From contig CAYUTR010000003.1 of the NCBI GenBank assembly GCA_964447465.1, positions 1 through 50,735 on the forward strand: a stretch of DNA of 50,735 nucleotides. The letters run 5' to 3'. The number at the start of each line of letters is the position of its first letter. Position 1 is the stretch's first letter. The notes beneath the pieces were generated by a model, which did not search any database, was not told where the DNA came from, and was given only the letters and a program-made list of their open reading frames with translations. This DNA comes from an uncultured Chryseobacterium sp. Lineage in GTDB: Bacteria > Bacteroidota > Bacteroidia > Palsa-965. Of the stretch, positions 1-36,948 are shown in pieces. Position numbers and translations under genes: made by a program.

Positions 1-36
1 CATGGGGTCTCTGGTTCAAGTCCAGAAGGGGGAGCA
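1..36 (+). tRNA. 3' portion of tRNA-Asn(GTT), truncated by the window start; left attachment site
   Basis: T-arm TCTGG-TTCAAGT-CCAGA and acceptor strand AGGGGGAG. The duplicated copy at 33026-33071 starts ACTGTTAATCATG, an anticodon loop CT-GTT-AA. Confidence 0.8.
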
Positions 37-40
37 GCTT

Positions 41-74
41 AAAAGCCTTTTTCGGAAACGAAAAGGGCTTTTTT
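41..74. terminator. Intrinsic terminator after the tRNA, probably also serving the convergent integrase
   Basis: AAAAGCCTTTTTCG-GAAA-CGAAAAGGGCTTTT followed by a T tract. Confidence 0.75.
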
Positions 75-100
75 GTTTTTAGCAACTGATGAGCAATTTC

Positions 101-135
101 GGGTTGCGGAAAAAGGTGCGGTTTAGGGTGCGGAA
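101..135 (+). repeat. Three G(G/T)TGCGG repeats; putative integrase arm-type sites (left)
   Basis: GGGTTGCGGAAAAAGGTGCGGTTTAGGGTGCGGAA; a near-identical array lies at 32931-32963. Confidence 0.65.
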
Positions 136-159
136 TTTTTCAAACCCGCACTTTCATTC

Positions 160-1548
160 TCAACGTGAGAGACCCTTTTCTCGACCCTTTTTGTCCTCGA
201 TTTCGATTTCGTTTTGATCCTCGGATTGGTATACGGAGAAGTCCTTTGCCGCAGCCGCAAGAATCTTTTTACTCGTGTAATGGCGTTGCATTACTTCTGT
301 TCCAGAATGGCCAGAAATTGCCCTGGCGTTCGAGAGACCCACAGCTGCGGCAAGTCCACTGATGTATGTCTTCCGCAAGCATCCGAACTTTAATCGCTTG
401 GAATATCCGAGTTGCGCATAGTAATGCGCGAATGACTTTGACATGAGGTTACGCATTGAATCGCGATCCATTGTTTCACCTGGTGCAAGAATGAATTGAT
501 CCAACTGCATGTCATTTGATCGAAGTCGATCTAACAAACCACGAAGCTCGGAAGTGAGTGGAACAATGCGATATATCCAGTCATCTTCTTTTGAGAGAAG
601 ACCTTTTTGACGAATTACTTTGTAGTCCGGCACCATTATTCCGTCTTCGGTAATGTCTTTCCATTTCATCCGCAGAATTTCTTCACGGCGTCGGCCAGTA
701 TAAAGAGCTAGTTCCACCGCATCTTTCATCCACGGCTTGTAGTAATTCTTTTTTACGCCATTGGAAAGTGTGTGAATACCGCGCTCTTGATCTTGCAGAA
801 TTTCGGTCAGTGCCTTGAACTGATGTTCTTCCATCGTCATAACGTTTTCCTTGGTCGGTTTTCTGATAAGCGAAGTGAATGGATTGCGCGAAGTGAAACC
901 TTCGTTGACCAAGTAGTTGTAGAAGGAAGTCATGTTCGTGATGGCCCGATTGTATCCGGCATTTCCGAGTTCAAGTTCTTCGGTAAGGTATTCGTAGAAG
1001 CTACCAATGAGCGCGTCGTCGATGTCGTTGATGGACATAGTTGATACGTCGCGGTCATTTTCCTTCGCGGCAGTTGCGAGGCGAAGAAAGGTCCTTTCCA
1101 TTTCTTTCAAAGTTTCAGGACTTCTTTTTTTGCGTTTGAACGCCGGGGCGATTTCCGGATCACCATGTAGGTAGCCGATATAGCGAGCCATCAACTCTGC
1201 GAGGTTATCGCTCGCGACTGTCGGTTGTTGTTTTTCTTTTGTTGCTGTTGATCGCGGCACAACGGGAACAGAATTCGCTTCGTCTTTTATTTCACGCTGA
1301 AATTCTAATGCAAGACGTCGCGCTTCATTCAGATCCCTTACGCCGGTCAGCGTCTTCGTCCTGCGCTCGTTGGAAGTTCCAGGCACATGCGCAAAAATTT
1401 TGAAGACGTGATCTGATCCCGATTTGCAGAACTGGATGTCTTTCCCAGAACCCTTACACACGCCATCCACAGTCGTTCCACACGCGTAGCAATGTACCTT
1501 GAGCCCTTTGACCTTCTTCGTGGCGGGGATGTACAGTGGCTTGGTCAT
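160..1548 (-). CDS. Tyrosine recombinase / integrase with a Cys/His-rich N-terminus
   Basis: LALYTGRRREEI (catalytic R), CLRKTY, ISGHSGTEVMQRHY (H and Y); adjacent to the att site. Confidence 0.92.
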   Translation of the reverse strand: MTKPLYIPATKKVKGLKVHCYACGTTVDGVCKGSGKDIQFCKSGSDHVFKIFAHVPGTSNERRTKTLTGVRDLNEARRLALEFQREIKDEANSVPVVPRSTATKEKQQPTVASDNLAELMARYIGYLHGDPEIAPAFKRKKRSPETLKEMERTFLRLATAAKENDRDVSTMSINDIDDALIGSFYEYLTEELELGNAGYNRAITNMTSFYNYLVNEGFTSRNPFTSLIRKPTKENVMTMEEHQFKALTEILQDQERGIHTLSNGVKKNYYKPWMKDAVELALYTGRRREEILRMKWKDITEDGIMVPDYKVIRQKGLLSKEDDWIYRIVPLTSELRGLLDRLRSNDMQLDQFILAPGETMDRDSMRNLMSKSFAHYYAQLGYSKRLKFGCLRKTYISGLAAAVGLSNARAISGHSGTEVMQRHYTSKKILAAAAKDFSVYQSEDQNEIEIEDKKGREKGLSR

Positions 1549-1922
1549 GTTTGTGCTCCGGAGATTGTTTGCATGAGCTCAGAAAAGAAACGCGATGCGT
1601 TTTTTCCTGGCGGTACTTTTGGAATTGCAACTTTCTTTTTTGTATCTTGAAGCATAGTTTCAATACCGCTGATATCTCCAAATTGATAAGCTGTTAATGC
1701 TAGTTTCCAATCAACGCCGTACCGCTTTTTGAGATACGGTATCAATGAGTGAAGCCGAGCGGCTTCAAATTCAGTTTTCAGTACATAGGGGGTTTTTGCT
1801 CCTACATCAGAGAAGATCGCGACTGTGTGGTTAATACACCACCTGCGCGCGCTGCGCTTATCCTTAAAACTCAGAAGGCGCGCGCATTCGCGTAAAGTCA
1901 ATCTGGCTATGTCTGTCGGCAT
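1545..1922 (-). CDS. Helix-turn-helix protein, excisionase-like
   Basis: Probable start MPTDIARLTLRECARLLSFKDKRSARRWC; 4-nt overlap with the integrase start. Confidence 0.55.
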   Translation of the reverse strand: MPTDIARLTLRECARLLSFKDKRSARRWCINHTVAIFSDVGAKTPYVLKTEFEAARLHSLIPYLKKRYGVDWKLALTAYQFGDISGIETMLQDTKKKVAIPKVPPGKNASRFFSELMQTISGAQT

Positions 1923-2054
1923 GGGTGTTCCTGTGTTGCAGATACAGTTGGTGCATTGGTTCACGGACACGAAAATTATTTTTTCGTGAAAGTGTCCGAA
2001 TGCGTGTCTTTTCAGATGTATATCAATAGCAAACACACTAAAACCAAACTCCCT

Positions 2055-2765
2055 ATGAGAACGACCCTTACACACGCCGAATTGGTTAATGCAATTGCTG
2101 ATGCACACGACGCAGGTCTTACAGTGGAAGCTGAACGTTTGTTCATGGAGCTGTATGAGAGGATTCGCGATCACTTTTACAGAGCGTATTGCAGCGTGCT
2201 TCGCGAAACGTTCAAGTCATCGGAGACTTCGCCGAGAGCGGAAAGGGTGTTTCAGGTCATACTCAACGAGATCGAACGAGAAATCCGCCGACGAAAGTTT
2301 AGTGTTGCAGCGGATGTAGCCGATGAAGTGGTGCGTAAACGGCTTGCGGTTCGCGTACTTCTGAAAGCTGTATGGCGAACGAAGGATGCGATCGAGAAAC
2401 AGAAGTTTATGTCTAGCTCTGACCTCGCCCCTGGACAATTGGAACAGTACGCTGATGTGCCGGATCACGACTCGGAGGAGAACGAGCACTTGCGCGTTGG
2501 GATAGCGTATGTGTTTGCTAACCTCGCTGACAAGGACCGCGAAATGATACAGGTGTATCACTACAGCGGACTAGCGCCTGAAGCCGCGGAAGAAATTCTG
2601 CGGGAGAAACACGCGCTCGGCGAATCCGCATTTAAGAAGGCGCTGTATCGTGCGAAGGAACGATTTAAGGAACTCTGGAAAGAGTACCTCTCAATGGAAT
2701 ATCGACTAACCACAAATAACCACTCTCAAAACCGCGAATACAATGAAAAACAACTCAACACCTAG
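2055..2765 (+). CDS. Sigma-70/ECF-like DNA-binding protein
   Basis: C-terminal region-4-like LADKDREMIQVYHYSGL...ESAFKKALYRAKERFKELW; start assigned to MRTTL. Confidence 0.55.
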   Translation: MRTTLTHAELVNAIADAHDAGLTVEAERLFMELYERIRDHFYRAYCSVLRETFKSSETSPRAERVFQVILNEIEREIRRRKFSVAADVADEVVRKRLAVRVLLKAVWRTKDAIEKQKFMSSSDLAPGQLEQYADVPDHDSEENEHLRVGIAYVFANLADKDREMIQVYHYSGLAPEAAEEILREKHALGESAFKKALYRAKERFKELWKEYLSMEYRLTTNNHSQNREYNEKQLNT

Positions 2766-2922
2766 CCCACGTGGTCAGGAATTGCTTTCTCAACTTTCCG
2801 TTGATGTACTACTTGCTTTTGGATTGATTGAATTGCTTGCCGATGAAACCTTTGCTAAACAATATGCCGAAGTTCATAACATCGAATGCGTTTCACCGGA
2901 GTATCAACGACTGACTAATTAA
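2743..2922 (+). CDS. 59-aa hypothetical protein (MKNNSTPSPRGQELL...YQRLTN)
   Basis: Hand-translated ORF below the track cut-off; A-rich start context; overlaps the end of the sigma-like gene. Confidence 0.4.
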   Translation: MKNNSTPSPRGQELLSQLSVDVLLAFGLIELLADETFAKQYAEVHNIECVSPEYQRLTN

Positions 2923-2969
2923 GGGAGCAATGATCACGTAACGCCACTTACCACAATGGTAGGTGGCGT

Positions 2970-3935
2970 TTACCTTTTCTTGAAGAGTTCTGTGACGATC
3001 CATTCAATTACTGGCACTGTGACTGCGTTACCTAAACACTTGTATCGTTGTGTGTCGCTAATGCCGATGGTCCAGTAATCAGAAAATCCTTGCAAGCGTT
3101 CGCACTCAAGCGGCGTGAGTTTTCTAATCTGCTTGTACAGGTTTCCGCAACGTTTCCCGACGAGCTTCACGTTTCTGAAATCACCAGCGCACAGCGCAGG
3201 TGAAATCGGCTTCCATCCGAATTCACGGTTGGATGAATTCGTGATCGCGATCACTGGCACAGAATTCGTCGATGCAACGAGCGCAGGACTGAATCCGGTT
3301 ACTCCGTGGATCTTTTTGTTGATGTACCCACCGTTATACAGGCAGTGAATGCCCGACCCGTTTTTCGTTTTATGCGGCGCGTCAGTCGGCGTATCTGTGA
3401 AGCCTTGAGGAAATATTTTGGGTTGGGTGATGCTTCGATGATGTCCGATAATGAGGACGCGTTCGCGGTGCTGTGCGACTCCGTGATTCTTGCTGTTAAG
3501 CACAAGCCATTGGACGCGATACCCCAATGCAGCAAGCGCGGCGACGATGACTTTGAAAGTGCGGCCGTCGTCGTGATTGAGCAGTCCCTTAACATTTTCG
3601 AGAATGAAGCGGGAAGGTTTTTTCGCGCGCAGTATTCTTTCAATGTGATAGAACATCTGTCCGCGGGGATCAGCGAAGCCTCTTCGTTTTCCAGCGATGC
3701 TAAAACTCTGACAAGGAAATCCGCCGACGAGCAGATCGAAGTCGGGCAATTCCTTTTCGTTGATCTTGGTAATGTCTCCGAAGTTTTTGTGCTTCGCGAA
3801 ATGCGTTGTGTAGATTTTGATTGCATAGGGGTCTATTTCGGAGTACCCCACGCAATGAGTTTTCTTTCCCGCTAATGCCTTATGAATTCCTGCTTCAAAC
3901 CCTCCGATACCACTGAACAATGAAAAATATTTCAT
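2970..3935 (-). CDS. dcm: DNA (cytosine-5)-methyltransferase, orphan
   Basis: FSGIGG, GFPCQSFS, ENV, QHRER and GNAV motifs; no adjacent restriction enzyme seen. Confidence 0.95.
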   Translation of the reverse strand: MKYFSLFSGIGGFEAGIHKALAGKKTHCVGYSEIDPYAIKIYTTHFAKHKNFGDITKINEKELPDFDLLVGGFPCQSFSIAGKRRGFADPRGQMFYHIERILRAKKPSRFILENVKGLLNHDDGRTFKVIVAALAALGYRVQWLVLNSKNHGVAQHRERVLIIGHHRSITQPKIFPQGFTDTPTDAPHKTKNGSGIHCLYNGGYINKKIHGVTGFSPALVASTNSVPVIAITNSSNREFGWKPISPALCAGDFRNVKLVGKRCGNLYKQIRKLTPLECERLQGFSDYWTIGISDTQRYKCLGNAVTVPVIEWIVTELFKKR

Positions 3936-3977
3936 GGTGAGGTAGTCCCGAAATGGGAAGTGAATTAGTAACGCGAC

Positions 3978-4145
3978 CTAGGAATTGATAATGACGGCGT
4001 AGTGCCGCGCGTATTCTATGATTGCGTCGATGATAGTGTTTCGACACTTCGTACATGCCGGACAACAGTTTTGCGCCCGATGCATACTGTAGAGAAATTT
4101 TCTCTTGAGTGTGATTAGACGCTGTATACTCTTTCGATCATGCAT
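3978..4145 (-). CDS. 55-aa Cys-rich hypothetical protein (CCPACTKC)
   Basis: Hand-translated ORF MHDRKSIQ...VIINS directly upstream of the methylase. Confidence 0.3.
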   Translation of the reverse strand: MHDRKSIQRLITLKRKFLYSMHRAQNCCPACTKCRNTIIDAIIEYARHYAVIINS

Positions 4146-4310
4146 AAATGATTACTCGTTGATGCGAGGATTTAATTTTGATAATCGACCAGCTGCTTTA
4201 CGTGCAGCGGACTATGGAACTGGAATTCGCATTGGTTGTTTCCTTCTGTTGCCAGAATGTCCCGCAGGGGATCAATGCCAATTCGCAAGAGCATCCATAG
4301 ACCGCTGAAA

Positions 4311-4348
4311 ACAAAAACAAGCCAGCTATTTAAGCTGACTTGCTTTTC
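4311..4348 (-). terminator. Terminator downstream of tRNA-Thr
   Basis: CAAGCCAGCT-ATTT-AAGCTGACTTG hairpin with an A tract on its left (U tract on the minus strand). Confidence 0.55.
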
Positions 4349-4353
4349 CGTTG

Positions 4354-4427
4354 AGCCACTTTTCGGATTCGAACCGAAGACCTGCCGTTTACAAAACGGC
4401 TGCTCTAACCAACTGAGCTAAAGTGGC
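4354..4427 (-). tRNA. tRNA-Thr(TGT)
   Basis: Reverse complement GCCACTTTAGCTCAGTTGGTTAGAGCAGCCGTTTTGTAAACGGCAGGTCTTCGGTTCGAATCCGAAAAGTGGCT folds as a full cloverleaf; CCA is not encoded. Confidence 0.95.
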
Positions 4428-4511
4428 ACTTTCCTCTGTGTGAACCGCGTATTTACAAGACGTAGTTCTCACCGAGAGCGGAAAGCAAGACATGCTTAAA
4501 TAACAGGTCTC

Positions 4512-4540
4512 AGTATATAGCCCAGTTGGTTTCGTTTCAA
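4512..4540 (-). promoter_or_regulatory. Canonical sigma70 promoter for tRNA-Thr
   Basis: TTGAAA-N17-TATACT on the minus strand. Confidence 0.65.
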
Positions 4541-4564
4541 GTTTGAGTTGTGGATAACTCTGAT

Positions 4565-5497
4565 TTAGATTGTCGAGTATATCTGCTGATGCAATGGCTT
4601 GAGCTCTGATTGAATAACCTGGAAATAATAGTTGAGCGTCATGTACAAACTCTTGTGGTGTGCGAGTTGTTGTACTGTTTTTGGATCAATTCCTTTTTTG
4701 AGAGGAATCGTAATGAACGTCGAGCGGCATGTCTTGTGTGTGAATGTTGATAGTAGTTTGGCGTCGATCTGTGATCGCTTCTTGAGTCTCTTGAGTGTTG
4801 TGCCAGCGGAGTTTTTGCGAAGCCTTGTACCATCCATTGATACAAATAGTGCCGGACAATCATCGGTACGCATCGTGAGGTATTCCTGAATTGAATTTTC
4901 TGCACCGTGTACAAAAACGGTTTTCCATTCGTCGTCGGCTTTTGCATCTTTAACTCTGAGTTCAAGAGTGTTCCAATTGATGTTTTCTATATCAACGCTG
5001 AGCGCTTCGCTCAAGCGAAGACCTGAATGAATCATCAGTTCAAAAAGTGCGGCGGTCCGCTTTATACTTAGTTGATGACCCCGTATCAATCTTCCGCGAC
5101 AATGTTTGCTGAAGTTCGGGGAATGATCTTGCGCGAGAACCGTGCGAATCTCTTTGATGTCTTCAGGCGACCATGCCATTACATCTCTTGAGCGGCGATA
5201 GGATGGGATGTCGATTTCATTTGCTTCTACGCCCGATCCTATTCTGCACTTTTTAACGTACTGCAATACCTTCCTGAATGTGAGCACGGCACTACGCGCA
5301 GTGCTTTTACCTCCAAGATTTGCCCTGTCTATGATTTCATTTCGGTGAATGGGCAGTAGCTCCGCTAGATTTTTATCACCGATCGCTGGTGAGATGATCT
5401 TAGTAAACATTGCAACGTGTTTTGAAATAGTACTCTCGGCTAGGTCGTTGCAACGACAATCTCTGATAAATCCCTCAAGTAAATCCTTGATTTGCAT
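4565..5497 (-). CDS. Second tyrosine recombinase (XerD-like)
   Basis: HSGLRLSEA, THKTCRST, LAHHKSLYMTLNYY; start assigned to MQIKDLL. Confidence 0.88.
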   Translation of the reverse strand: MQIKDLLEGFIRDCRCNDLAESTISKHVAMFTKIISPAIGDKNLAELLPIHRNEIIDRANLGGKSTARSAVLTFRKVLQYVKKCRIGSGVEANEIDIPSYRRSRDVMAWSPEDIKEIRTVLAQDHSPNFSKHCRGRLIRGHQLSIKRTAALFELMIHSGLRLSEALSVDIENINWNTLELRVKDAKADDEWKTVFVHGAENSIQEYLTMRTDDCPALFVSMDGTRLRKNSAGTTLKRLKKRSQIDAKLLSTFTHKTCRSTFITIPLKKGIDPKTVQQLAHHKSLYMTLNYYFQVIQSELKPLHQQIYSTI

Positions 5498-5800
5498 AAT
5501 ACAAAAAGCCCGGAAACAACCCCGGACTTTCTGCTGCACCCAGCTTGCGCCGGGCAACAAAAAAATAGCACACTTCAAAGAAAAAATAAAGAGTAGGTAA
5601 AGAAACCCTCAAGAAGAGAGCTAGAGCTTATCGGTATGTATTAGTCCCGTGTTGTTTCACTCCCTTTCGAGGAGCTGCTTCTTACGAAGCAACGGTCTTA
5701 ATTAACATAATAAAGTTCAACCGGCGTGAAGATTACTCTTTCTCGCATTTCGTGTCAAGGAAAGTTGTGACCTCGAGATGATTTATGCTATAACCTATTC

Positions 5801-6505
5801 ATGTCTGAGCATGAACAAATAGCGCAGAAAGCAATTGACTATGCACGTGCAAACAAAAAGAAGATTGCCCGTGATTTGACCGACACAGATAAGTTTCCCA
5901 GCGAAGAAAATCCAGTTTCGGTTTTCATGGCTGGGTCACCGGGCGCAGGGAAAACCGAGTCGTCCAAGAATCTTATCAAGAGATTTTCCGATCAAAACAA
6001 TTCCGTGTTGCGTATTGACCCTGATGAATTGCGAAATTATTTTGAGGATTATACTGGCACCAATTCATTTGTTTTTCAGTCGGCGGTTTCAATTCTCGTG
6101 TCTTCAATTCATGATCACGCACTTTCAAATCGCCAGAGTTTCTTAATTGATGGGACGCTATCAAGCTTGAAACAGGCCAAAGAAAATATACAGCGCTCGC
6201 TTGATAAAAAAAGATTTGTCCAAATACTTTATGTGTATCAAGACCCCATTCAGGCCTGGGACTTCACGCAAAAACGAGAAGCCTTAGAGGGTCGCAACAT
6301 TCCCAAAGAAGTTTTTATAGAACAGTACTTTGCAGCCCGAGAAACAGTCAACGCATTGAAGAAACAATTCGGACCAACAATTCGGGTTGATTTGTTGGTC
6401 AAAAACATTGACGGTTCAGATCAATACTATAAGGAGAATATTGACATTATTGACAGTTATGTTGAAGAGATATATAATCGAGAGACCCTAAAAAAAGTGA
6501 TATAA
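5801..6505 (+). CDS. Zeta toxin family P-loop protein
   Basis: FMAGSPGAGKT, RIDPDELR, LIDGTLS, REALEGRNIP motifs. Confidence 0.85.
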   Translation: MSEHEQIAQKAIDYARANKKKIARDLTDTDKFPSEENPVSVFMAGSPGAGKTESSKNLIKRFSDQNNSVLRIDPDELRNYFEDYTGTNSFVFQSAVSILVSSIHDHALSNRQSFLIDGTLSSLKQAKENIQRSLDKKRFVQILYVYQDPIQAWDFTQKREALEGRNIPKEVFIEQYFAARETVNALKKQFGPTIRVDLLVKNIDGSDQYYKENIDIIDSYVEEIYNRETLKKVI

Positions 6506-6510
6506 TCAAT

Positions 6511-6666
6511 ATGTATATGTTTTCACTTCTACGAAAACCGGAGAAAGAAACGGAATTCTCAAAGTTTATTCGAAATGCCTCTTCTGGTGAGAAGAAGAAG
6601 GTATTTATTGATGTGCTTACCCAAGCCACGGAGGATCAACGCAAGATTTTGAATAAGGGGTGCTAA
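6511..6666 (+). CDS. 51-aa helical protein, possible partner of the zeta toxin-like gene
   Basis: Hand-translated MYMFSLLRKPEKETEFSKFIRNASSGEKKKVFIDVLTQATEDQRKILNKGC; TGATATAAT just upstream. Confidence 0.6.
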   Translation: MYMFSLLRKPEKETEFSKFIRNASSGEKKKVFIDVLTQATEDQRKILNKGC

Positions 6667-6700
6667 ATAAAACCGCATGCGCGGTTTTATTTTTTCTACG

Positions 6701-7183
6701 TCAGCACGAATAGAGTTTCACTTTTTCGAGCATCCCTCTCAAAGTCCACCGCGGCATGAGATAGCCATCTTTCAATTCTGTAACGCGAAGCACTCGTTCA
6801 TTTTCGATAACGTATTTGAATCCCCACATGTAAGTGGGGTGGTAATACAGAAAGAGCCATATCTCATTGTCTTTCATTGAATGCGTGAGATACATATCGA
6901 TCGATTTATAGGTGCGCTCTTGATACACAATCGCAAAGCGATCCTGCTGCGCGAGTTTCCAGAGAAAAGCGTAGTAGCCGTGCTGCTCTGGAATCGCGAT
7001 GACGCCAGGACCGATCCCGACCGCCCGATTGAATTCACGTATTGCCAAATCAACGTAACGCGTGAGTCGTCGCTCGTCCATTGGGATTGAGCTCGTAATC
7101 ATGCGACGCTGTATCGAATGTGATCCTTTGAGACAAACGTGAGCACATCGCTTCGTTTTCCTTCTGACGGCAAGAGAAAGCAC
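6701..7183 (-). CDS. Hypothetical protein; true start probably near 7102-7081
   Basis: ORF only. Confidence 0.45.
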   Translation of the reverse strand: MLSLAVRRKTKRCAHVCLKGSHSIQRRMITSSIPMDERRLTRYVDLAIREFNRAVGIGPGVIAIPEQHGYYAFLWKLAQQDRFAIVYQERTYKSIDMYLTHSMKDNEIWLFLYYHPTYMWGFKYVIENERVLRVTELKDGYLMPRWTLRGMLEKVKLYSC

Positions 7184-7449
7184 TCGCCGATGATTTTCTC
7201 TTTGAAAATTTCCTGCGCGGTTTTGTTCTGCTTTACTGACGTTCCGTTCTTCAGTTTAGGAGGAAAGGTTTTATACTCTCCTTCGACGACTTCACCGTAC
7301 CAATCATATTCGCCGCAGTAGAGCGTTCCCCATTCAGTATTTACTTTCTTCCATTCAGGAGCAATCCTTTCCATGAAAAGTTTCGCCATTGGCTCCGTCA
7401 TGCTTATTACGCCTCCGTTTAGATTGAAATAGTAGTATGACATCTTCAC
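7099..7449 (-). CDS. Hypothetical protein
   Basis: ORF only. Confidence 0.5.
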   Translation of the reverse strand: MKMSYYYFNLNGGVISMTEPMAKLFMERIAPEWKKVNTEWGTLYCGEYDWYGEVVEGEYKTFPPKLKNGTSVKQNKTAQEIFKEKIIGECFLLPSEGKRSDVLTFVSKDHIRYSVA

Positions 7450-7547
7450 AGATTTTAATGTCCGTGAAGGTTACATCCACAATTCAGGAAGTCTGACTAA
7501 GAAATTTAGCTAAGTGTTAAAGTAACGTGAACTAGATGGCTGATGCA

Positions 7548-8066
7548 TCAGAACGCAACTCGCGCAGCATCAAGTGCATCTTGAACGATGCCTAATTCTC
7601 CAGGATATTTTTCGCAGAAATCATCTGGGTTTCCATTTGGAGGGCAGTAAATGCCATTCATCCAACCTTCATACTTGCCATGACCACACCAAACAAAGCC
7701 ATTGCTTACTCTACGGTCTTCATAGATTTTTCCGACTGGATAGTCTGGTATACCATTCGACTCTGCATAGTGGAGTACTTTCCATCTCTCATCCGGCTCA
7801 CCGACAAAACAATAAACTGTTGGCTGTCTGGACACATCGGATAATTCCTTTAAATGTTCGAGCGTTTGTGTTGTCGGCACTTCAGCACAGATCTCAACGA
7901 AGCATTTCCACCCAGGTATGAAAAATGTTGGTGTGTGTAGTGTGTCATTCTTCAGTACAACTGTTCTGGATTTGTACTCCCACGCCGTATCGAGTTCATC
8001 AAAGAACACTGCCCATTGCGCTTCGAGCTTCGTTGCAAAAGTGACCGTCTTATATACTACGTCCAT
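7548..8066 (-). CDS. Phage-type PD-(D/E)XK-like protein, possibly degenerate
   Basis: FATKLEAQWAVFFDEL...WEY...TPTFFIP...FVEIC resembles the FRSRLEARWA...YLPDF...EIK family but lacks the PD aspartate and the ExK lysine. Confidence 0.5.
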   Translation of the reverse strand: MDVVYKTVTFATKLEAQWAVFFDELDTAWEYKSRTVVLKNDTLHTPTFFIPGWKCFVEICAEVPTTQTLEHLKELSDVSRQPTVYCFVGEPDERWKVLHYAESNGIPDYPVGKIYEDRRVSNGFVWCGHGKYEGWMNGIYCPPNGNPDDFCEKYPGELGIVQDALDAARVAF

Positions 8067-8070
8067 AGAA

Positions 8071-9495
8071 TTATTGCTTTATAAATTTTCCAGAACACGG
8101 ATTCCTTCCTTCCTCAGTAACCTGATAGAAATACATACCCTCCGCAAATTGTGAGGCAGAGATCGACACCGAGGACTCATCCGTTTCTTCCCGCCACACT
8201 TCCTTCCCGAGTGCATCATATATAACAAGCTCACGCGATTTTTGCTCGCCCGAGAATTGAAACGTGATAATGTCACTTACAGGATTCGGATAAACAGAAA
8301 TTAAAGGATTGTTCAACGGGCCTTCAACTCCAAGATAGAATTGACCACACGTGTCGACCCAATTGCCGCCATCAAACTTGGCAATATGCAAAATAGAATC
8401 TTGTCCAATGCTCCAGAAATTGCCACCGAGAAATAGTGAGTCGCGGAATACCGCGAGCGCATACGGTCGAGTATCAAATGTACCGATTGTATCAAATACA
8501 CACCACTGCACGCCATCCCATTTCGCAACATCTTCTCCTGCCACTCCACCAGCGCATTGAAACGCTCCGCATATCCAGAGCTCATTATGAAACACGACCA
8601 TATCGTGTATCTGACCATTCACAAACGGATTAGGTGGATTGAATGTGCCACCGGCAGGATCAATCCATACAGTTCCATCCCACGCAGCAATGTTGTCGCT
8701 TGGATTGTTTGCATTCTCTGTTCTTGTAAACGCTCCCGACACATACAGTTTATTTTGAAAAATACACATCTGCTCGACACCAGCTAACCCTCCATAGAAG
8801 CCGCCGCCAACATCTGTCCACGCAGTACCATTCCATCTTACAATTTCCCGGATTCCACCTGGACCTTGAAAATTGCCGCAGACATACAATTCGTTGTTGT
8901 ATTCGATAACATCACAGAGAAGATTTCCTCCGTAACTCGGCAAGGCATGTACATCTGACCACGTGGTGTCATTCCATTTAGCAAGACCATTGACCGGAAT
9001 TCCATCTGCATTGGTGAAGGCGCCGACAACATACAGTTCGTCGTTAATTACGCGCATCCCCGAAACTGAATTACTAGTTCCCCCGAGTACTGAATCCCAC
9101 GTTGTGCCATTCCATCGCGCAATATGATTGCATTGCACACCACCTGCCATCGTGAACCCGCCGCCAACATATATGTCCCCATGATATTCAGTTATGCAAC
9201 TTACAGATGGCCCGGGACCAGCAAAGCCAGTCAAGCAATTCCATTCAATACCACAGCCAAGTGAAAAATAATTCGTGCCGTTCCACCCCATTACGCCGGG
9301 ACAAAAGATAGCAGAATCAGCTTCCTTGAAAACGCCAGCCATGTATAGAACATCACCTACGGTATCAACAAAAAAGTCCGTGATTGCACTTCCTTGTGTT
9401 ATGCCATCCTTCACGGGAATCCAATGCTGCGCACGTCCCTCAAAGGAACATGCGCAGCAAAGTGCGATCAGAAATATGATGATGTGCTTTCTCAA
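8071..9495 (-). CDS. Secreted beta-propeller repeat protein with T9SS type A sorting domain
   Basis: Signal peptide; repeats of LYVGGxF...IARWNGTTW; C-terminal VYPNP...GMYFY...GKFIKQ. Confidence 0.9.
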   Translation of the reverse strand: MRKHIIIFLIALCCACSFEGRAQHWIPVKDGITQGSAITDFFVDTVGDVLYMAGVFKEADSAIFCPGVMGWNGTNYFSLGCGIEWNCLTGFAGPGPSVSCITEYHGDIYVGGGFTMAGGVQCNHIARWNGTTWDSVLGGTSNSVSGMRVINDELYVVGAFTNADGIPVNGLAKWNDTTWSDVHALPSYGGNLLCDVIEYNNELYVCGNFQGPGGIREIVRWNGTAWTDVGGGFYGGLAGVEQMCIFQNKLYVSGAFTRTENANNPSDNIAAWDGTVWIDPAGGTFNPPNPFVNGQIHDMVVFHNELWICGAFQCAGGVAGEDVAKWDGVQWCVFDTIGTFDTRPYALAVFRDSLFLGGNFWSIGQDSILHIAKFDGGNWVDTCGQFYLGVEGPLNNPLISVYPNPVSDIITFQFSGEQKSRELVIYDALGKEVWREETDESSVSISASQFAEGMYFYQVTEEGRNPCSGKFIKQ

Positions 9496-12400
9496 TGTTG
9501 AATAACCACTTTCTGGCTATACATATTTTCGTGATCTATGTACTGAATCGAGTAGACGCCATTTGCCCATGTCGTCGTATTAAACGTGGTTCGGTTTTGA
9601 CCTGGATTAATCGTTTGAGTTGCCACGATCTGACCGAGCGCGTTATACACTAAGATACTGCTTTTCTCTGTGCCATCGCCGGGGAGAAGAACGGTGAATT
9701 CGTCAGCTGTGGGACTTGGGAATACGGTAAGTACACCGGGTTGTTCTTTGATTGAATCAGGAATCCCAACATTCAAACCTTGAAGGTCGAGTGAAGTAAG
9801 ATAAATATCCCACGGCGCATCGGTATTCCAGACGACAGGTGTATAGCACCAAGGATTCGCTGTGCTCGGACAAATGAATGGATAGTTATTCGATCCTGTA
9901 AACCCTGTGAAGTAAAGTCGCTGTTGCGCCGGAGACCATGAAATTTGCGATGCGACATCACTTGCACAATCAATGTACGGGAAGCCAGTCCAAGGACAGT
10001 CACCACCGCAGTATGTCGACCACGCTAACGATTTGTTTGCGCGGAAGCAGAACATATTGACGTCAGCTGAAGTCGGTTCTCCTCCTGCATACGCAGACTG
10101 CCAAAAGAATGGCGGTTGATTGACTGTTGGAAATGCAGAACCTGTATTATCTGTAATGCCCGTGAGGTATACGTTACCGCTGTCATCATGTACTGCATCG
10201 AGGAATTTCTTCTCATAGTTGATTTGAAATGCAAACGTCGCGGATTCATCTGAACCACCGCCATAGAATGTTGCCCATCGCAGCATGTTCGGCGGACCGA
10301 ATGCCATGATGTAATAATCGGCTTGACCATTGATAGTTTGATCGATATGTCCTCCAGACGGCCCCCAGATTGCATAGCCGCCCGATGTATCCTGTTGCGT
10401 TATGATTCCTGGATCAGTCGGAATGTTCGTTACTCCAGCGATCATTACTTGACCGCCGATGCTCGTCACCGTTTGTATAGAGCTCACGCGATTTACTGCA
10501 GTACACCATTGCATCGCTCCGCTGTTTGCGAAACGCGAGACAAATCCTTTTTGCGTATTCATCACCGCATATGCACCGATGTGATAATCTGAACCACTCC
10601 ACATGAGCGGGAAACTACCGTCTGTCGCACCAACAGCGAAGAATGCATTTTGCACTGTGTCGTATGTTGCGTCATACATTTCATCTAGTCCGCCGCCGCC
10701 GAGATACGTTGACCAACGCAGCGTATTGGTAGTATCAAATGCAGCGATGAAGCAGTCTTGCATTCCACCACCGAATGTATAATCGAAGTACGACGAAAGC
10801 ACGGAGTGACATAATGGGAAATAATGATTTGCTGGCGCAGTGCTGCCAGTTGTATCATTAAGAGAGGAACGTGTGTTGCCCGCCAAATACACGCGTCCAT
10901 TCGGTGCGCATCGAACAACTCTTCCTTCATCCTGATCTCGCCCACCGAAGAACGTGCTCCATGATATAGCTCCAAATGCTGTATCCATCCTCGCAATAAA
11001 TGCATCATAGGACACAGTATTGTAAACGTAGTTGGTGTCTTGCCAATAACTACCGTTGCTCGGGTTAGCAGAAGGGGCAATTGGGAATGTTCCTGCGCGA
11101 CTATTTGTTTGTCCGGCTATATAGAGGTGATTTGAGGATACGCCACCATTGAATGTGACACTACGTACCCAATCAAAACCAGATCCAGATGGTCCGCCTC
11201 CTCCGTAAAATAATACCCATTCTCTTCTGGCATCCGCGTTAAACTTCAATACAACACCTTCTGTCATTCCTCCATTCCAAGTTGTTGCTGTATTCCAGAG
11301 TGGAAATGATTGATCCCATGTATAGCCGCCAACGTATGCATTGCCAACGTTATCATTGCATACATCCATGCCATAGTCGTTATCATTGACTGTCCCATAG
11401 TGCGTCGACCACCACATGTTTCCATTAGCAGGACTTGATGGCGCGGTGTATGGTCCTTGATACATTCGGAATACGAGTGTGTAGCTTGAGTTGTACGAAC
11501 CAAGACTTGTGAATGAAACGGTGTTGCCACTTATACTATATGCTGGTGACCATGCAAGCGAGACATAGTTGCCGCTTGCATCTACTTGAAACACGTCAGC
11601 TTTTTGTATCGTCATTGAACCGCAGCCGGTAGTAAGTACAAGATCTCCTCCTCCATTGATGCTCATGCTTGTTTGTCCAGACCAATTCATTTCAATATTC
11701 GCTGGATTGCCTGTCGGTTTGACGGCGAAGTATGTAACCGGTCCAGTACCATTGTGTGTTTGCATCATGTCGATCTTGGTGTACAAGTCATATGTTGTAA
11801 GACGACGATACAAGGGAACACGTACGGCACCTTGTGGAGTGCCGCCGCCATAATAGTTGTGATGATCTGTGCGTGGATCATAAGCACGGATAACACGATC
11901 GGGGTTCGCGTTCTTCGGCGTCATGTCGATGCGCGCCATCGAATCGACGAGGTTCAAAGAATCACGACGATTCAGAAATACATACGAAGTTGTCTTGTTT
12001 GAGAAGTACGTACGCGGCCATGTTTCTGCGTTGTAATATTTGATCGTATCGTGTTTGTTACCATCTGTGCCGAGGAGCTGACCGCGATTCTTTACGAATG
12101 CCCATGCAGTTGAAAGTGCCATGCCATCGGGCATGTAGATTGCAATCTTCTGAATGTAGCGTACCGCTGTGTAGGAGAGCGCCCCTGGTACTCCTGTTTG
12201 TCCTACAACAATGAAACTGCCGTCTTGTGCAGCAGCTACGTCGAATGCGCGATCGTCTTTGTCACCGACACTATGCCAACTTGCAGACCATAATGTAGTG
12301 CCTGATGCGTCATACTTGATTGTGTAGTAATCATTGTTTACTCCGTTGTGCTTCCAACCTGTTACAACTGGAAGACCGCTGGCATCGAGCGCAATCGCTG

Positions 12401-18238: not shown

Positions 18239-19279
18239 TTAAAGACCGAACATGATCCGCTCAGAACCATTCACGAAATTAAGATAAAGAGGGCCGACAA
18301 GTGACGGAACGACTTTAAGTTGAATTTCCACGCTGTCGTCCTGATAAAGTGAAACTGTTGTGGCCGTGCTGACAGCCTCATTGCTGTTATTAGCTAGAAT
18401 CCTGATCGAGTCCAAGTCCAAATTGGATATCAATCCGTCATCATTCGAAAGAAAGAAGTGAGCATTGGTTTGAAACGGGATGAAAAAACGGCCGAAGTCA
18501 GTATTCAGAAGTGTAACAGTAATTTGCGGCTCTTTGTGCGTCACCGAGATAGTGATCTGACCAACAGTAATCGATTGATTTAGATCTCCCCAAATGATTG
18601 TGTCGTTTCGTTTGAATAATCTCCTAATTAAGACATCGACATTAGTGTACGGATTCGTCGTGGCATGTTTTAAGGCATTTAGATCAGCGCCTTTTTTATG
18701 TCTTAACCATGCAGCATTTTCCAAAACGTGCTCGTTGCGAGACTGCACAACTTGATATACATTATATCCCCATTTCTTATTATAGTCAGGAATGTATTTT
18801 TCTCTTATGCGATTCGCAGCGCAACGTACTCCTTTACAATCTAAAGGATGATCTTTTCCTGGTTTACCACAATCAAAATGTTTTTCACCTTCCTTGCAAT
18901 CTGATTTTGCGTATGCAATTTGGTTCTTTTCGTAGTGAAGCAAAACCCAATGTTCAAAGGCAACGCTCGAATAGCCAACATTGACGATTCTACCGTCAAT
19001 TATCTGTGCGGCATCGGTTAGAGCCTGAGTTGGAACATCGCCATCTTTATCAAAGACTGCCCAAACCTCCGTATGTGTTTTAGATTTTTTCCGTGCGAGA
19101 TTTACCAAAGCCGTCGCATCATTGGGGCTCTTTGAATCTTCTGGATACACCGTGATAGTTACGTCCCACGTGTTTTGCACTTCATCACGAATCGCCTCAA
19201 AATATCTCCTTTCTGATACAGCTCCTTCACAGGCAATATAAATCGTGTGTGGTGCCGGTTGCTTCTTTATAACTCGCAT
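18239..19279 (-). CDS. rloB: RloB-like (TOPRIM-related) protein with a C-terminal extension
   Basis: YIACEG..SERRYF, VWAVFDKD, SSVAFEHWVLLHYE, NPYTNV. Confidence 0.85.
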   Translation of the reverse strand: MRVIKKQPAPHTIYIACEGAVSERRYFEAIRDEVQNTWDVTITVYPEDSKSPNDATALVNLARKKSKTHTEVWAVFDKDGDVPTQALTDAAQIIDGRIVNVGYSSVAFEHWVLLHYEKNQIAYAKSDCKEGEKHFDCGKPGKDHPLDCKGVRCAANRIREKYIPDYNKKWGYNVYQVVQSRNEHVLENAAWLRHKKGADLNALKHATTNPYTNVDVLIRRLFKRNDTIIWGDLNQSITVGQITISVTHKEPQITVTLLNTDFGRFFIPFQTNAHFFLSNDDGLISNLDLDSIRILANNSNEAVSTATTVSLYQDDSVEIQLKVVPSLVGPLYLNFVNGSERIMFGL

Positions 19280-19288
19280 ACCAATTAG

Positions 19289-20575
19289 TTATTTTGTCGG
19301 AGGAAACTTGATACCTGTTTCATTGATTTTGGGTTTCGCGCGCATATTCCCAGCATCATACCATTCTGCCAATGAAACATCATCAGGAACGTTGTCAAAA
19401 TCCTGAGCAGAATAAAGTTCTGTTGAACCATATTGATTTTTCTGAGCGAACCATACCTGATCCTTTCTTAAAAAGGTTTTGTCGATCAATGAAATGTCGT
19501 GTGTAGAAAATATTAGTTGCGCGTTGTTAGGGTTACTTACAGCATCGTTAAACAATTTTACAAATAACGCGCAGAGATCAGGATGAAGACTTGAGTTTAA
19601 TTCGTCAAACAATCCGAAGCCGCCTGTATCAATCATTTGTGCAAAAATTCCACCGAGACCAACGAATGATTTTGTTCCATCAGAAGCAGTTGGAAAAAAT
19701 TGAAACTCCTTTGTGCCAACTTCGTGCTTATCCTTAAAACGCTTGTGCTTGGTGTAAGGAGTATAGTCCTCAGGCGATGCTGAAGCATTTGGTGTTAGCC
19801 CACTAGAGTCCTTTTTTTCCTCGACTCTCATGCTCATTGTTTGGAGATCGGCTTCACTGATTAAGCGATTGATCCATTCATTCGTTTTATTATTACCCCC
19901 ATTTTCATTCATGGATTTGAGTGCCGTGAACAAAAGTTGTCTGCGGGCATCCGCATTATTTGCGTCCCAAATAAGTGTGGTTAGAAGGCTTTTATATACC
20001 GCACCCATGAAGTCGTCAGCATGATTGTTTGCCAGATCAGACAACGCCAGACGTTGAGCTATTATTTTGTTCGGTAAACTTCTATTTTCGAGGGCGACTC
20101 CGTATGTGACTGAAGCTCCCGATCTCGTAAAAAGGCGTTGAAAATTTCCATCGGAGTAATGCTCAAGATCTTCCGAAAGGAATTCTGTAGCCGTATGAGA
20201 GAATTGGTAGCGGAATCGTGTAAGATTCGTTCCAACAAATTCGAATAAATATGATGTGGGCTTGTCTTGCATCGTATCTTCCAATTCATACGGATCATAT
20301 TCAATGGTGCTCTCCAAATTATTGCTAGCGCTGGTCTCAACTAATCTGCAAAAACTATTAAAGGCTCTAAGGAAATTACTTTTCCCGCTAGCGTTTGGCC
20401 CGTAAATCGCAACCGTTTTTAATAGTTTTACTGTTTGATCTCCGGACAGTTTCAGATCAAATGTATTTTCAGCACGGTTGGGTATCTTAGGATTCGCCTC
20501 CATGCTAAAAATGAGTTCATCACAGATTGATCTGTAATTGGAAACTCGGAACTCAATAAATTTTGGTTTACTCAT
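19289..20575 (-). CDS. RloA-like AAA/ABC-type ATPase
   Basis: IYGPNASGKSN, SDGT, FDELNSSLHP, AQLIFSTHD, LRKDQVWF. Confidence 0.88.
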   Translation of the reverse strand: MSKPKFIEFRVSNYRSICDELIFSMEANPKIPNRAENTFDLKLSGDQTVKLLKTVAIYGPNASGKSNFLRAFNSFCRLVETSASNNLESTIEYDPYELEDTMQDKPTSYLFEFVGTNLTRFRYQFSHTATEFLSEDLEHYSDGNFQRLFTRSGASVTYGVALENRSLPNKIIAQRLALSDLANNHADDFMGAVYKSLLTTLIWDANNADARRQLLFTALKSMNENGGNNKTNEWINRLISEADLQTMSMRVEEKKDSSGLTPNASASPEDYTPYTKHKRFKDKHEVGTKEFQFFPTASDGTKSFVGLGGIFAQMIDTGGFGLFDELNSSLHPDLCALFVKLFNDAVSNPNNAQLIFSTHDISLIDKTFLRKDQVWFAQKNQYGSTELYSAQDFDNVPDDVSLAEWYDAGNMRAKPKINETGIKFPPTK

Positions 20576-20617
20576 TATCGTTGTTTTCTTTCTCGTTCAA
20601 TTGAACCCTTTGAAGTT

Positions 20618-21577
20618 TCACGGATTATCTTTTTTGAATCTCATATTTATCGTGAGATTGCCACGCTTGACAATACTTTTTTCAGTATTGATTGTAGCAA
20701 TAATGGTCTTAACCGTTGGTCGTTTCACCGGGTCTTTTGATAGCATTGTGTTGATTAATGTCACTAACGTGTCTGGAAATCTATGAGCATTTTTGACAAC
20801 AATCTTTCCGCCATTATTTACGACGTTAGATGCGTATTTATCGGACGATACTCCTTCAGGATATTCTCCACTTAAGATTTGGCAAAAAACAATCCCCAAC
20901 GAGAAAATGTCAGACTTGAGAGAAATTTCTGAAGTTGCTATTCCAGAACCTGTCTGTACATACTTTTCAACTTCCGGGGAAAAGTAGGTTAAATCACCAA
21001 TAATATTTTCAGCTTGCGGTGGGTTGTGATAAAAATATCCATTGTCATAATCAATCAAGTATGGCACGAAAAAACCTGCCGGATCTTTTTCGAAAAGAAT
21101 ATTCTGTGGCTTAATATCACCATGAACAATTCCTGCGTCGTGTAGTATTTTTAATGATTCAGAGATTACTCTCAGAATAAACGTCCTCTTTTCAAGAGGA
21201 AGTCGAGAAATTTCGGCAATTGAGAGTGAAGCCGAATTAATTTTTCTCGTGACCTTATAGTATTTGGCGTTGACGCGAAAAAAGTCTAATGTTTGTACAA
21301 GGTGAGTATCAAATATTACGCATGGATCTATTGTTTCTTTCAGCGCATGGTGCTGCTTCTCAAACTCTAAACATAAAGCTCGCTTTTTGATTTTTTTAGT
21401 TTCGCTCCCCGGTGATCCAATAATAGGAAAGGTCGGCGCCAAAAACTCTTTCATGAAATAATAAATGCCTCTTTTTCTTACAAATGTCCAAGTGCTACAC
21501 CCTGCATTCTTGTTAGAGAAGGGAGCTCCATCCACACCAGCTACTTCGTATCCATTTATTATTTCGCCGATCTTCAT
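20618..21577 (-). CDS. Ser/Thr protein kinase
   Basis: FMKEF, HGDIKPQNIL, IDYD, YFSPE, SDIFSLG, RPT. Confidence 0.92.
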   Translation of the reverse strand: MKIGEIINGYEVAGVDGAPFSNKNAGCSTWTFVRKRGIYYFMKEFLAPTFPIIGSPGSETKKIKKRALCLEFEKQHHALKETIDPCVIFDTHLVQTLDFFRVNAKYYKVTRKINSASLSIAEISRLPLEKRTFILRVISESLKILHDAGIVHGDIKPQNILFEKDPAGFFVPYLIDYDNGYFYHNPPQAENIIGDLTYFSPEVEKYVQTGSGIATSEISLKSDIFSLGIVFCQILSGEYPEGVSSDKYASNVVNNGGKIVVKNAHRFPDTLVTLINTMLSKDPVKRPTVKTIIATINTEKSIVKRGNLTINMRFKKDNP

Positions 21578-23211: not shown

Positions 23212-23877
23212 TTAAATGCTATTGGCTATGGCATCAATTATGGCACTGTAATCATGTTCTTCAAGTCCTTCTCCAGCTCGCGAAGTATAAATTATTGTGT
23301 TATCCCAGGTCGCTATTTCTTTCCATGGATAATCTTCTGGGCCATAAATAATTAATCGTTTAGCGCTGAATTCCTGATCGTCCCAGAGATCAGTCAATTC
23401 GTCAAGATTTTTTGGAAGATCTGAAGGATAATTTGGAAGGTATGAGCCAGCTCCTTTCTCTAGTTTGTGGGCTGGAGCGTCAGTGTACAAAACAATTACA
23501 CGTCGATGTTTTCCTTCACCTTTATTCCATTCAGATTTCATAGCTAACGCCAGTGCTTCTAATGAACTTTCTGGGTCGTCACCACCACCATCAGCAACTA
23601 TTGTACTCACGAACATCGAAAAGTTAGTTTTCTGAACGGGAAGAGAATAGAATGGAGATAGCTCCATTGCATTTTTCCCATCAGCAAAATAATCTCTGAA
23701 CTTAATCACCTTCACACGAAGAACGTCTATTCCTTTACCCTTGATTGTAAGATTGTCGGTCAAATCTTGATGAAATTTGATCGCATTTTCTTTTACATGA
23801 TCAATTACTGGCGCCATACTACCGGTAGCATCAATGCAAAGGACAATGTCCACCGTGTACTTCATTTGTTGGCTCAT
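23212..23877 (-). CDS. vWA domain protein
   Basis: MIDAS motif DIVLCIDATGSM, GGGDDPES, LYTDA. Confidence 0.9.
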   Translation of the reverse strand: MSQQMKYTVDIVLCIDATGSMAPVIDHVKENAIKFHQDLTDNLTIKGKGIDVLRVKVIKFRDYFADGKNAMELSPFYSLPVQKTNFSMFVSTIVADGGGDDPESSLEALALAMKSEWNKGEGKHRRVIVLYTDAPAHKLEKGAGSYLPNYPSDLPKNLDELTDLWDDQEFSAKRLIIYGPEDYPWKEIATWDNTIIYTSRAGEGLEEHDYSAIIDAIANSI

Positions 23878-33025: not shown

Positions 33026-33071
33026 ACTGTTAATCATGGGGTCTCTGGTTCAAGTCCAGAAGGGGGAGCAG
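33026..33071 (+). repeat. attR: duplicated tRNA-Asn 3' half, from the anticodon loop onward
   Basis: Identical to 1-37 over 33035-33071; no D-arm or 5' acceptor strand upstream. Confidence 0.9.
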
Positions 33072-34539: not shown

Positions 34540-34560
34540 ATTTTCGGCGGCCTGCGGCGC

Positions 34561-34729: not shown

Positions 34730-34739
34730 AAAAATCGGG

Positions 34740-36825: not shown

Positions 36826-36948
36826 TCGTTGTTTGTTATAACCCGCCACGAAGATATGATTCATACGTTCCTGCATTTAACCGCTTACTACTTCTCCAAA
36901 AAAAGGACGTCCCATCAATTGCTTGACGGGACGTTTCCCCCCTTTTAA

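Follow-up and report, generated by a model that had tools for sequence, protein, structure and literature searches.

The best-described relatives of the locus discussed here are the epsilon/zeta (pSM19035) and PezAT systems, whose toxins are UDP-N-acetylglucosamine (UNAG) kinases; epsilon inhibits zeta by sitting on its nucleotide-binding side. The locus itself is a two-gene cassette, encoding a zeta-fold kinase and a 51-residue partner, in a 50,735-nucleotide stretch of DNA from an uncultured Chryseobacterium sp. (GTDB lineage Bacteria; Bacteroidota; Bacteroidia; Palsa-965; GenBank assembly GCA_964447465.1, contig CAYUTR010000003.1, positions 1 to 50,735), referred to below as the window. The window is one entire contig (C3) of a metagenome-assembled genome (MAG) of 544 contigs and 5.08 Mb, with an estimated completeness of ~96% and an estimated contamination of 2.66%. 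The explanation that best covers the whole of the evidence, and which we consider probable, is that a two-gene cassette of a Patescibacteria type was inserted into a Bacteroidota mobilizable island. Some 0.97 kb of such DNA would have entered the island backbone on the strand opposite to that of the neighbouring genes, and its kinase and partner may constitute a toxin-first, zeta-type toxin-antitoxin or abortive-infection module.

Like the epsilon/zeta and PezAT toxins, the kinase matches the Zeta_toxin family, carries a Walker A P-loop and is modelled with a PezT/zeta fold, and, as in epsilon/zeta, its small partner is predicted to occupy the nucleotide-binding side of the kinase. Unlike in either system, the kinase gene comes first and the partner gene second, and the partner has 51 residues, matches no family and is not a homologue of epsilon or PezA; an omega or helix-turn-helix regulator is also absent. 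With no upstream antitoxin gene and a conserved, unrelated partner downstream, the system is neither epsilon/zeta nor PezAT.

In the type II systems higBA, mqsRA and hicAB, the toxin gene likewise comes first and the antitoxin has a separate promoter; the toxins are RNases and the antitoxins bind DNA. The cassette shares with these systems the toxin-first order and a promoter-like element, placed within the toxin gene or at its end, which, judging from its sequence, could give extra antitoxin. It differs from them in that its putative toxin is a kinase and in that transcription from the internal promoter would yield a leaderless mRNA. The surrounding island has its own counterpart in the NBU-type elements, which are Bacteroidota integrative mobilizable elements residing in tRNA genes. 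Island and NBU-type elements have in common a tyrosine integrase at a tRNA attachment (att) site, repeats of the tRNA 3' end, a relaxase and a coupling protein. Unlike NBU-type elements, the island targets tRNA-Asn, holds a second integrase together with a tRNA-Thr gene, and carries defence genes and type IX secretion substrates as cargo. “Orphan” PezT/zeta toxins have been reported, and in the available portion of a PezAT review (PMC10532202) antitoxins for them are sought in upstream genes only; the toxin-first order, a partner of 50-60 residues and a -10 box overlapping the toxin stop codon do not appear in that portion of the review.

A zeta-fold kinase with a conserved downstream partner

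The first gene of the cassette (5801..6505, + strand) encodes a P-loop kinase of 234 residues that, by its sequence, is a member of the Zeta_toxin family: residues 28-214 match PF06414 with 145.2 bits against a cut-off of 22.3. Its Walker A motif, GSPGAGKTE, is invariant in 26 kinase sequences. The structural model of the kinase (predicted local distance difference test score, pLDDT, of 91.7) has PezT (2p5t) and zeta (1gvn, 3q8x) as its top Foldseek matches at template-modelling (TM) scores of 0.66-0.70, with expectation (E) values of 5e-10 to 1e-9 for 2p5t and 1gvn, followed by ng_zeta1 and AvrRxo1. Of 65 alignment columns without variation across 25 relatives, the kinase retains 63, the two changes being conservative, and the window copies of kinase and partner both look intact. 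Upstream of the kinase lie 303 bp with no open reading frame (ORF) of at least 40 residues in 5613-5800, and beyond them a divergent integrase; no antitoxin gene of the epsilon/PezA type is present there.

The second gene (6511..6666, + strand) encodes the 51-residue partner, a putative antitoxin. Among species-representative genomes, 550 confirmed stretches encode a relative of the kinase, and the locus counts given here refer to the best 80 of them. In 75 of these 80 loci, spread over two phylum-level groups, the partner gene lies directly 3' of the kinase gene as a co-directional pair. The conserved core of the partner includes the invariant residues F19, R21, A23, K29, V35 and Q43, all six of which the window copy keeps. 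The partner had no match in Pfam, NCBIfam, PADLOC or PHROGs, and in the protein atlas it matched only unnamed clusters at 0.82-0.83. Annotation of the pair goes no further than “zeta toxin family protein” and “hypothetical protein”, the latter being the label of the partner homologue on a Shewanella plasmid.

A model of the kinase-partner complex scored 0.90, against 0.43 for the best of three controls; 116 of 157 solved complexes attained that mark, as did 2 of 215 mismatched pairs. Agreement between runs was at least 92% of contacts, and the pLDDT of the partner was at least 79. The modelled interface includes kinase residues 48-62, which form part of the P-loop and the helix that follows it. 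The model supports, but does not demonstrate, binding of the partner to the kinase at the P-loop, with the partner positioned over the P-loop helix, where it would obstruct the nucleotide site. At six of the eight Patescibacteria loci examined (L002, L003, L004, L005, L007 and L008), the cassette stands beside type ISP/type I restriction genes or genes for a YgjP-like metallopeptidase, which suggests a defence-island setting in the putative donor group. A toxin-antitoxin or abortive-infection role would also fit the other defence cargo of the island.

Phylogenetic affinity and composition of the cassette

The kinase has 2871 homologues in a large protein library, the closest being 65-71% identical to it. 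The three close matches that carry an organism name are all from Patescibacteria (Nomurabacteria, Buchananbacteria and Paceibacterota); a cluster look-up of 10 kinase matches yielded no names of organisms. Among the best 80 of the 550 loci, Patescibacteria-type or unnamed MAGs fill the first 17 places, most of the remainder are Gammaproteobacteria, and none of the 80 has a Bacteroidota title. A careful maximum-likelihood tree of 81 rows unites the window kinase with 28 other rows at a support of 99/92; 20 of these rows are labelled as Patescibacteria lineages, six have no phylum label, and the remaining two are Bdellovibrionota and Pseudomonadota. On these sequences, the affinity of the window kinase to the Patescibacteria clade is well supported, and it is affinity to the clade, not nesting within it, that has support. 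A quick tree had seemed to settle the nesting; the careful tree and an approximately unbiased (AU) test show otherwise.

The composition of the gene pair is likewise unusual for the genome that carries it. Tetranucleotide distances were expressed as percentiles among length-matched windows of this genome, and kinase plus partner (5801-6666) fall at the 96.7th percentile, with a guanine-plus-cytosine (GC) content of 39.8% against 45.2% for the genome. The tetranucleotide comparison that the earlier note on this DNA had called for was to bear on a larger block (2970-7449) in which that note had placed the pair; the kinase and partner proved atypical, and the second integrase (58.8), the methylase (38.2) and the orf160-172 stretch (6701-8066; 12.4) did not.

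The cassette might also be a rare gene pair native to the mobile elements of Bacteroidota, its affinity to Patescibacteria reflecting uneven sampling; only ~440 same-phylum genomes were searched, and an organism name is missing from most of the 2871 homologues. The counts make this very improbable. The kinase was found in none of 40 relatives (24 of them of the same genus) and none of 400 drawn same-phylum genomes; of 250 genomes drawn from Patescibacteria, seven had it. Bacteroidota titles do not occur among the best 80 loci. The atypical composition and a promoter layout of the kind seen in the Patescibacteria clade argue in the same direction.

A promoter layout shared with Patescibacteria loci

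Four motifs had drawn the attention of the earlier note, and all four are present as written. The kinase has a candidate promoter, TTGTGA-N18-TATAAC with a TG extension (5765..5794, + strand), whose extended -10 box, TGCTATAAC (5786-5794, + strand), ends 6 nt before the kinase ATG and would give a leaderless transcript. A second candidate, the extended -10 box TGATATAAT (6498..6506, + strand), overlaps the kinase stop codon and ends 4 nt before the partner ATG; a perfect TTGACA-N17-TATAAT occurs at 6450-6478. The two sigma70-type -10 boxes, one before the kinase and one overlapping its stop codon, would give leaderless or near-leaderless mRNAs, and the second could supply extra partner. E. coli-type promoters work poorly in Bacteroides; in the present host, both boxes are best regarded as candidate promoters.

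The kinase ATG is preceded, at a distance of 3-10 nt, by a TAnnnT hexamer in 24 of 28 loci of the Patescibacteria clade and in 3 of 50 loci of the proteobacterial clade; random positions give 13% and 6%, respectively. Ten of the 24 are TG-extended, and a Shine-Dalgarno-like motif was seen at one locus of the Patescibacteria clade against 18 of the proteobacterial clade. For the window itself, the pattern search matched the neighbouring TAACCT, as the hexamer described above ends in C. In 12 of 27 Patescibacteria-clade loci (eight TG-extended) and in 9 of 48 loci of the other clade (none TG-extended), a -10 box runs across the stop codon of the kinase gene and ends 4-8 nt short of the partner ATG; the sub-clades L002-L008 and L038/L047/L057/L078 have it in every one of their 11 loci. 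These shared layouts indicate that the regulatory arrangement of the cassette, and not just its protein, is of the Patescibacteria kind. The near-leaderless -10 arrangement picked out in the earlier note is typical of that clade.

The other two motifs lie outside the cassette. A sigma70-like TTGAAA-N17-TATACT (4540-4512, - strand; 10/12 matches) is a candidate promoter 84 nt upstream of the tRNA-Thr gene, in a flank that is not conserved in the same-genus genome G007. The DnaA-box-like 9-mer TGTGGATAA (4549-4557) is at chance level: it occurs once in the window, where 0.40 occurrences would be expected, and 36 of 100 shuffled sequences contain one or more. The earlier note had also reasoned from the Bacteroidota promoter motif TAnnTTTG. 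The host does use this motif, which is present in 15.3% of 1866 upstream regions and 1.2% within genes; its absence from the block is not diagnostic, because host-type genes in 1-8200 lack an exact copy too, none being found in the nine upstream regions examined there.

Extent of the foreign DNA

The cassette comprises promoter, kinase, partner and terminator (~5724..6695, + strand), and all neighbouring genes lie on the opposite strand. It amounts to ~0.97 kb, including 77 bp upstream of the kinase. Its limits came from a decisive search in which positions 1-8100 of the window were compared with the DNA of 26 other genomes of the same genus and which gave no match in the cassette; G003, G007, G022 and G023 denote the same-genus genomes named here, and G000 denotes the genome of the window. 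Genome G013, which is flagged as unpublished, underlies none of the statements made. It is the only stretch of the 2970-7449 block without same-genus or same-genome relatives, and it separates the non-coding region that precedes int2, the second integrase, from the far end of the orf116-orf160 operon. On the left, the insert abuts a conserved non-coding part of the island backbone (5498..5723), which is 79-88% identical in DNA to contig C7 of G023, with homology stopping at ~5723. On the right, the cassette ends in a hairpin with a T-run (6669..6691, + strand) that is not shared with contig C46 of G007. No opposite-strand gene pair between integrase and small ORFs was found in G007 or G023.

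The earlier note had taken the whole of 2970-7449 to be a single Patescibacteria-derived block. Its five named genes (methylase, tRNA-Thr, integrase, zeta gene and 51-residue ORF) are all found in place, and the flanking genes orf160 and orf116 complete the block; the edges drawn for it have not survived, since same-genus homology and composition confine the foreign part to ~5724-6695. In favour of the larger block, the island-borne tRNA-Thr(UGU) gene (4353..4427, - strand; gene anticodon TGT) differs strongly from the chromosomal tRNA-Thr(UGU) on contig C205, and its best match is marginally better in 150 drawn Patescibacteria genomes (89%) than in 150 same-phylum genomes (87%). With best matches so nearly equal, the phylum of origin of this tRNA cannot be told. 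The int2 family is also rare, and a search at 1e-20 recovered it from none of 300 same-phylum genomes; it was not found in 301 Patescibacteria genomes either.

The same-genus genomes speak against an alien origin of these parts. Contig C30 of G007 carries tRNA-Asn, the island integrase int1 and orf209, and then, ~4.7 kb on, a tRNA-Thr together with an int2-family integrase. That tRNA-Thr(UGU) is 84% identical to the window copy, with paired stem changes between the two, and both are unlike the C205 copy; the integrase beside it is 52% identical in amino acids to int2. Contig C7 of G023 carries tRNA-Asn, int1, orf209 and orf269 and has DNA homology to window 4147-4244 (77%) and 5495-5723, so that stretches of shared backbone interrupt the proposed block. 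Between these two stretches, G023 carries no tRNA and an integrase of another kind, 24% identical to int2, with the counterpart of 5495-5723 again lying upstream of it; the int2 integrase module looks exchangeable.

The remaining genes of the block have relatives of the same kind. The C5 cytosine DNA methylase (2970..3935, - strand; PF00145, 3.2e-84) has a Bacteroidia bacterium as its sole organism-named close match (55%), and homologues in G003 and G022 are 49-55% identical in amino acids and 66-72% in DNA. At the other end, orf160 (6701..7102, - strand; probably a 133-residue form, its ATG overlapping the orf116 stop codon as ATGA) is 53% identical in amino acids to a homologue on G007 contig C46. 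The adjoining orf116 (7099..7449, - strand) belongs to a multi-copy host family, with four paralogues on contigs C14, C49, C178 and C19 (33-40% identity) and a homologue on the same G007 contig. With these results, and with tetranucleotide distances that are ordinary for the genome, derivation of the whole block from Patescibacteria is already refuted for five of its seven parts, and we give this explanation hardly any credence. Of the parts of the block called Patescibacteria-like in the earlier note, the kinase and its partner (~970 bp) have kept that label, and the methylase, tRNA-Thr, int2, orf160 and orf116 have lost it. The protein searches and phylogenies that it proposed were similarly divided: the kinase groups with Patescibacteria, the best named match of the methylase is from Bacteroidia, and the tRNA is uninformative. 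Promoter “style” judged by eye had caught a real signal and overextended it about five-fold, and the same-genus islands gave the true edges.

Evidence against the proposed origin

Several results weigh against the reading of a Patescibacteria-type cassette inserted into the island. Sigma70-like sites are not enriched around it (7 in 2500-8500, against 9.6 +/- 3.0 in shuffles), the sigma70-like pattern occurs in 10.5% of host upstream regions, and the kinase -10 hexamer, TATAAC, ends in C rather than in the usual T. Neither a recombinase nor a flanking repeat that would explain the insertion was found, and no repeat family listed for 1-12000 brackets the cassette. Regarding the proposed biochemical role, a profile of the kinase family run against the PDB misses zeta/PezT at E 0.001 and retrieves only seryl-tRNA(Sec) kinase, so the substrate of the kinase may differ from UNAG. 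In the tree, the window kinase falls within the clade in a sub-clade with L002-L009 at supports of only 86/61, 97/25 and 71/58, and the AU test does not reject a tree in which the window lies outside the 28-row clade (p 0.871). A best identity of 65-71% points to no known recent donor, and identities to the proteobacterial clade, at 55-62%, are almost as high. Finally, the left junction of the cassette is bridged in the assembly by only 26 bases, below a 31-base rule, in one sample at ~5x.

The phylogenetic points bear directly on a rival source for the cassette, namely an unsampled lineage or a phage or plasmid vector, the window gene then being a sister of the Patescibacteria clade and not a member of it. 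Given the AU result and the weak nested supports, the donor could indeed be such a sister lineage; the GC content of the cassette lies above the 30-37% of seven of the eight nearest loci, and the kinase family also occurs on proteobacterial plasmids at 46-58% identity. Set against this are the support of 99/92 for the window together with the Patescibacteria clade and the stop-overlapping -10 box common to all 11 loci of the sub-clades named above. In the phage collection, which was searched with the integrase only, the int2 family had no match of useful identity. We consider a donor of this kind rather unlikely.

The weak left junction raises the further question of an assembly chimera, in which a Patescibacteria fragment was misjoined into a Bacteroidota contig. 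The stretch is present in two runs of one permafrost sample, in contigs of ~5x depth that probably derive from the same reads as the MAG and so represent a second assembler and not independent data; a further run, X3, contained next to nothing of it, and no RNA data set was listed for it. These low-depth, fragmented contigs from one sample, the 26-base junction, and the many contigs and estimated contamination of the MAG are what a misjoin would have in its favour. In the assembly graph, however, branch points within 1-10000 occur only at 37, 79, 7483-7520 and 8182, and none at 5724 or 6695. One contig spans 5698-6825 and another 6597-7518, so the right junction is bridged twice; depth is alike on either side, and an insert of 0.97 kb would need two false joins. 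The branches at 37 and 79 correspond to the att repeat and the tRNA flank. Loose ends lie at 7483, 7485 and 7520, and the 7483-7520 branch was considered as a chimeric junction and rejected, as it is a 38-bp host repeat upstream of a host gene family; the join across it is supported by the att pair and by synteny with G007 and G023. A chimera, which the earlier note had offered as its own alternative, is accordingly most unlikely, and insertion of a Patescibacteria-type cassette remains the preferred explanation.

The mobilizable island and its other features

The cassette resides in an integrative mobilizable element of ~33 kb (window 1-33071, interior 38-33034) inserted in a tRNA-Asn gene. 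Its left end, attL (1..37, + strand), is the 3' end of tRNA-Asn(GTT), and its right end, attR (33035..33071, + strand), is an exact 37-bp direct repeat of window 1-37. Window 1-55 is identical to positions 1934-1988 of contig C530, at the end of which stands a complete tRNA-Asn gene (1894-1968). The island tyrosine integrase, int1 (160..1548, - strand; PF00589), adjoins attL and forms a host-type module with orf209 (1545-2174); paralogues of this module lie on contigs C27, C73 and C164 (int1 at 28-32% identity), and int1 is 46% identical to its counterparts in the same-genus islands of G007 and G023. A relaxase (26713-27531, - strand; PF03432, 6.4e-13) and a type IV coupling protein (28059-29519, - strand; PF02534, 1.1e-55) complete the features that, with the tRNA 3'-end repeats and the adjoining integrase, identify an integrative mobilizable element. 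A full conjugation apparatus was not found among the island ORFs scanned.

The cargo of the island includes RloB with AAA_21, a Ser/Thr kinase with PP2C and VWA, PIN, RadC and type IX secretion substrates. The defence-type genes are gathered at 18239-23877, where an RloB-like protein and an AAA_21 ATPase are followed, in the same direction, by a Ser/Thr kinase, a PP2C-like protein and a VWA protein. Two large proteins adjoining the block proposed earlier bear Por_Secre_tail, the C-terminal sorting domain of type IX secretion. Compared with a plasmid collection, the coupling protein reached only 27% identity to Sphingomonadaceae plasmids and is uninformative as to organism; assignment of the island to Bacteroidota therefore draws on the type IX secretion tails, the enrichment of TAnnTTTG and the Bacteroidia-named match of the methylase. 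The earlier description of a Bacteroidota island is borne out by its att pair, int1, relaxase and coupling protein.

Beside int1 and orf209 lies orf269 (1956-2765), 39% identical in amino acids to its G023 homologue, which shows a weak, sub-threshold similarity to sigma-70 factors of the extracytoplasmic function (ECF) type (E 0.002-0.006). If orf269 were an island-encoded sigma factor, it could bear on how the unusual promoters are read.

The second tyrosine recombinase, int2 (ORF 4565-5578, - strand; PF00589, 5.2e-21), probably starts at the ATG at 5497, since its relatives have 310 residues, giving a likely gene at 4565..5497. Its family counts 19 proteins, including itself, in a library of 5.8 billion, none of them with an organism name, and a metagenome scan gave one true relative (38% identity) on a 1.9-kb contig. 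In viral contig, phage and plasmid collections, int2 found at most ~32% identity, and it could be placed only through the same-genus DNA search. The tRNA-Thr gene beside it gave the only above-threshold Rfam match in 1-10000. An int2-type integrase and tRNA-Thr(UGU) are adjacent both in the window (4353-5497) and on contig C30 of G007 (L198; 7676-8763), with the tRNA of G007 inverted relative to the integrase and its flanks not conserved. The tRNA-Thr was also considered as an att site with a partial copy elsewhere and rejected: neither this tRNA-Thr nor the C205 copy has a fragment of 12 nt or more at any other place in the genome.

Two further non-coding elements flank these genes. The backbone stretch 5498-5723 contains two hairpins with paired changes between the window and G023, one of them terminator-like and ending 7 nt before the int2 ATG. 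It had no Rfam match, and the spacer 5498-5800 has no other copy in this genome; from its sequence, the stretch is a candidate regulatory RNA or recombination site. The 38-bp repeat upstream of orf116 (7483..7520) has copies on contigs C178, C49, C19 and C14 (97%), on C4 (87%) and on G007 contig C46 (95%). It sits 35-80 nt upstream of each member of the orf116 family, breaks assemblies with k=31 at that point, and may be a shared promoter or leader. Elsewhere in the genome, contig C10 carries ten tRNA genes within 4.1 kb (34139-38275), including tRNA-Ile(TAT), and several of them duplicate tRNAs found at other places; the cluster may be a tRNA array of a phage or mobile element, or a mis-binned contig.

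Implications for gene flow and for the zeta family

Gene sharing with Patescibacteria is, in the available part of one study (PMC12455944), predicted to be more frequent per genome in a set of phyla that includes Bacteroidota than in, for instance, Pseudomonadota; the example given there, gyrB, runs from Bacteroidota to Patescibacteria. In the present case, unlike in that example, the likely direction is reversed, the recipient is a mobile element, and the foreign promoter layout has been kept. A limited literature search on leaderless transcription or zeta toxins in Patescibacteria, also called the candidate phyla radiation (CPR), found nothing on these points.

A bolder proposal, which we regard as doubtful, is that the two proteins make up a functional and hitherto undescribed branch of the zeta systems, toxin-first and native to Patescibacteria, with the antitoxin made from a leaderless promoter in the last codons of the toxin gene, and that the pair was gained through physical contact with an episymbiont and marks a host-symbiont pair in permafrost soil. 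A near-identical donor copy in the same habitat, if found, could hint at who lives on whom. The kinase-partner pair is uncharacterised and yet widespread, with its 2871 homologues and 550 genomic stretches. Few cases of gene flow from Patescibacteria to other bacteria are documented, and a cassette with a promoter layout of the donor type offers a concrete, testable case of it.

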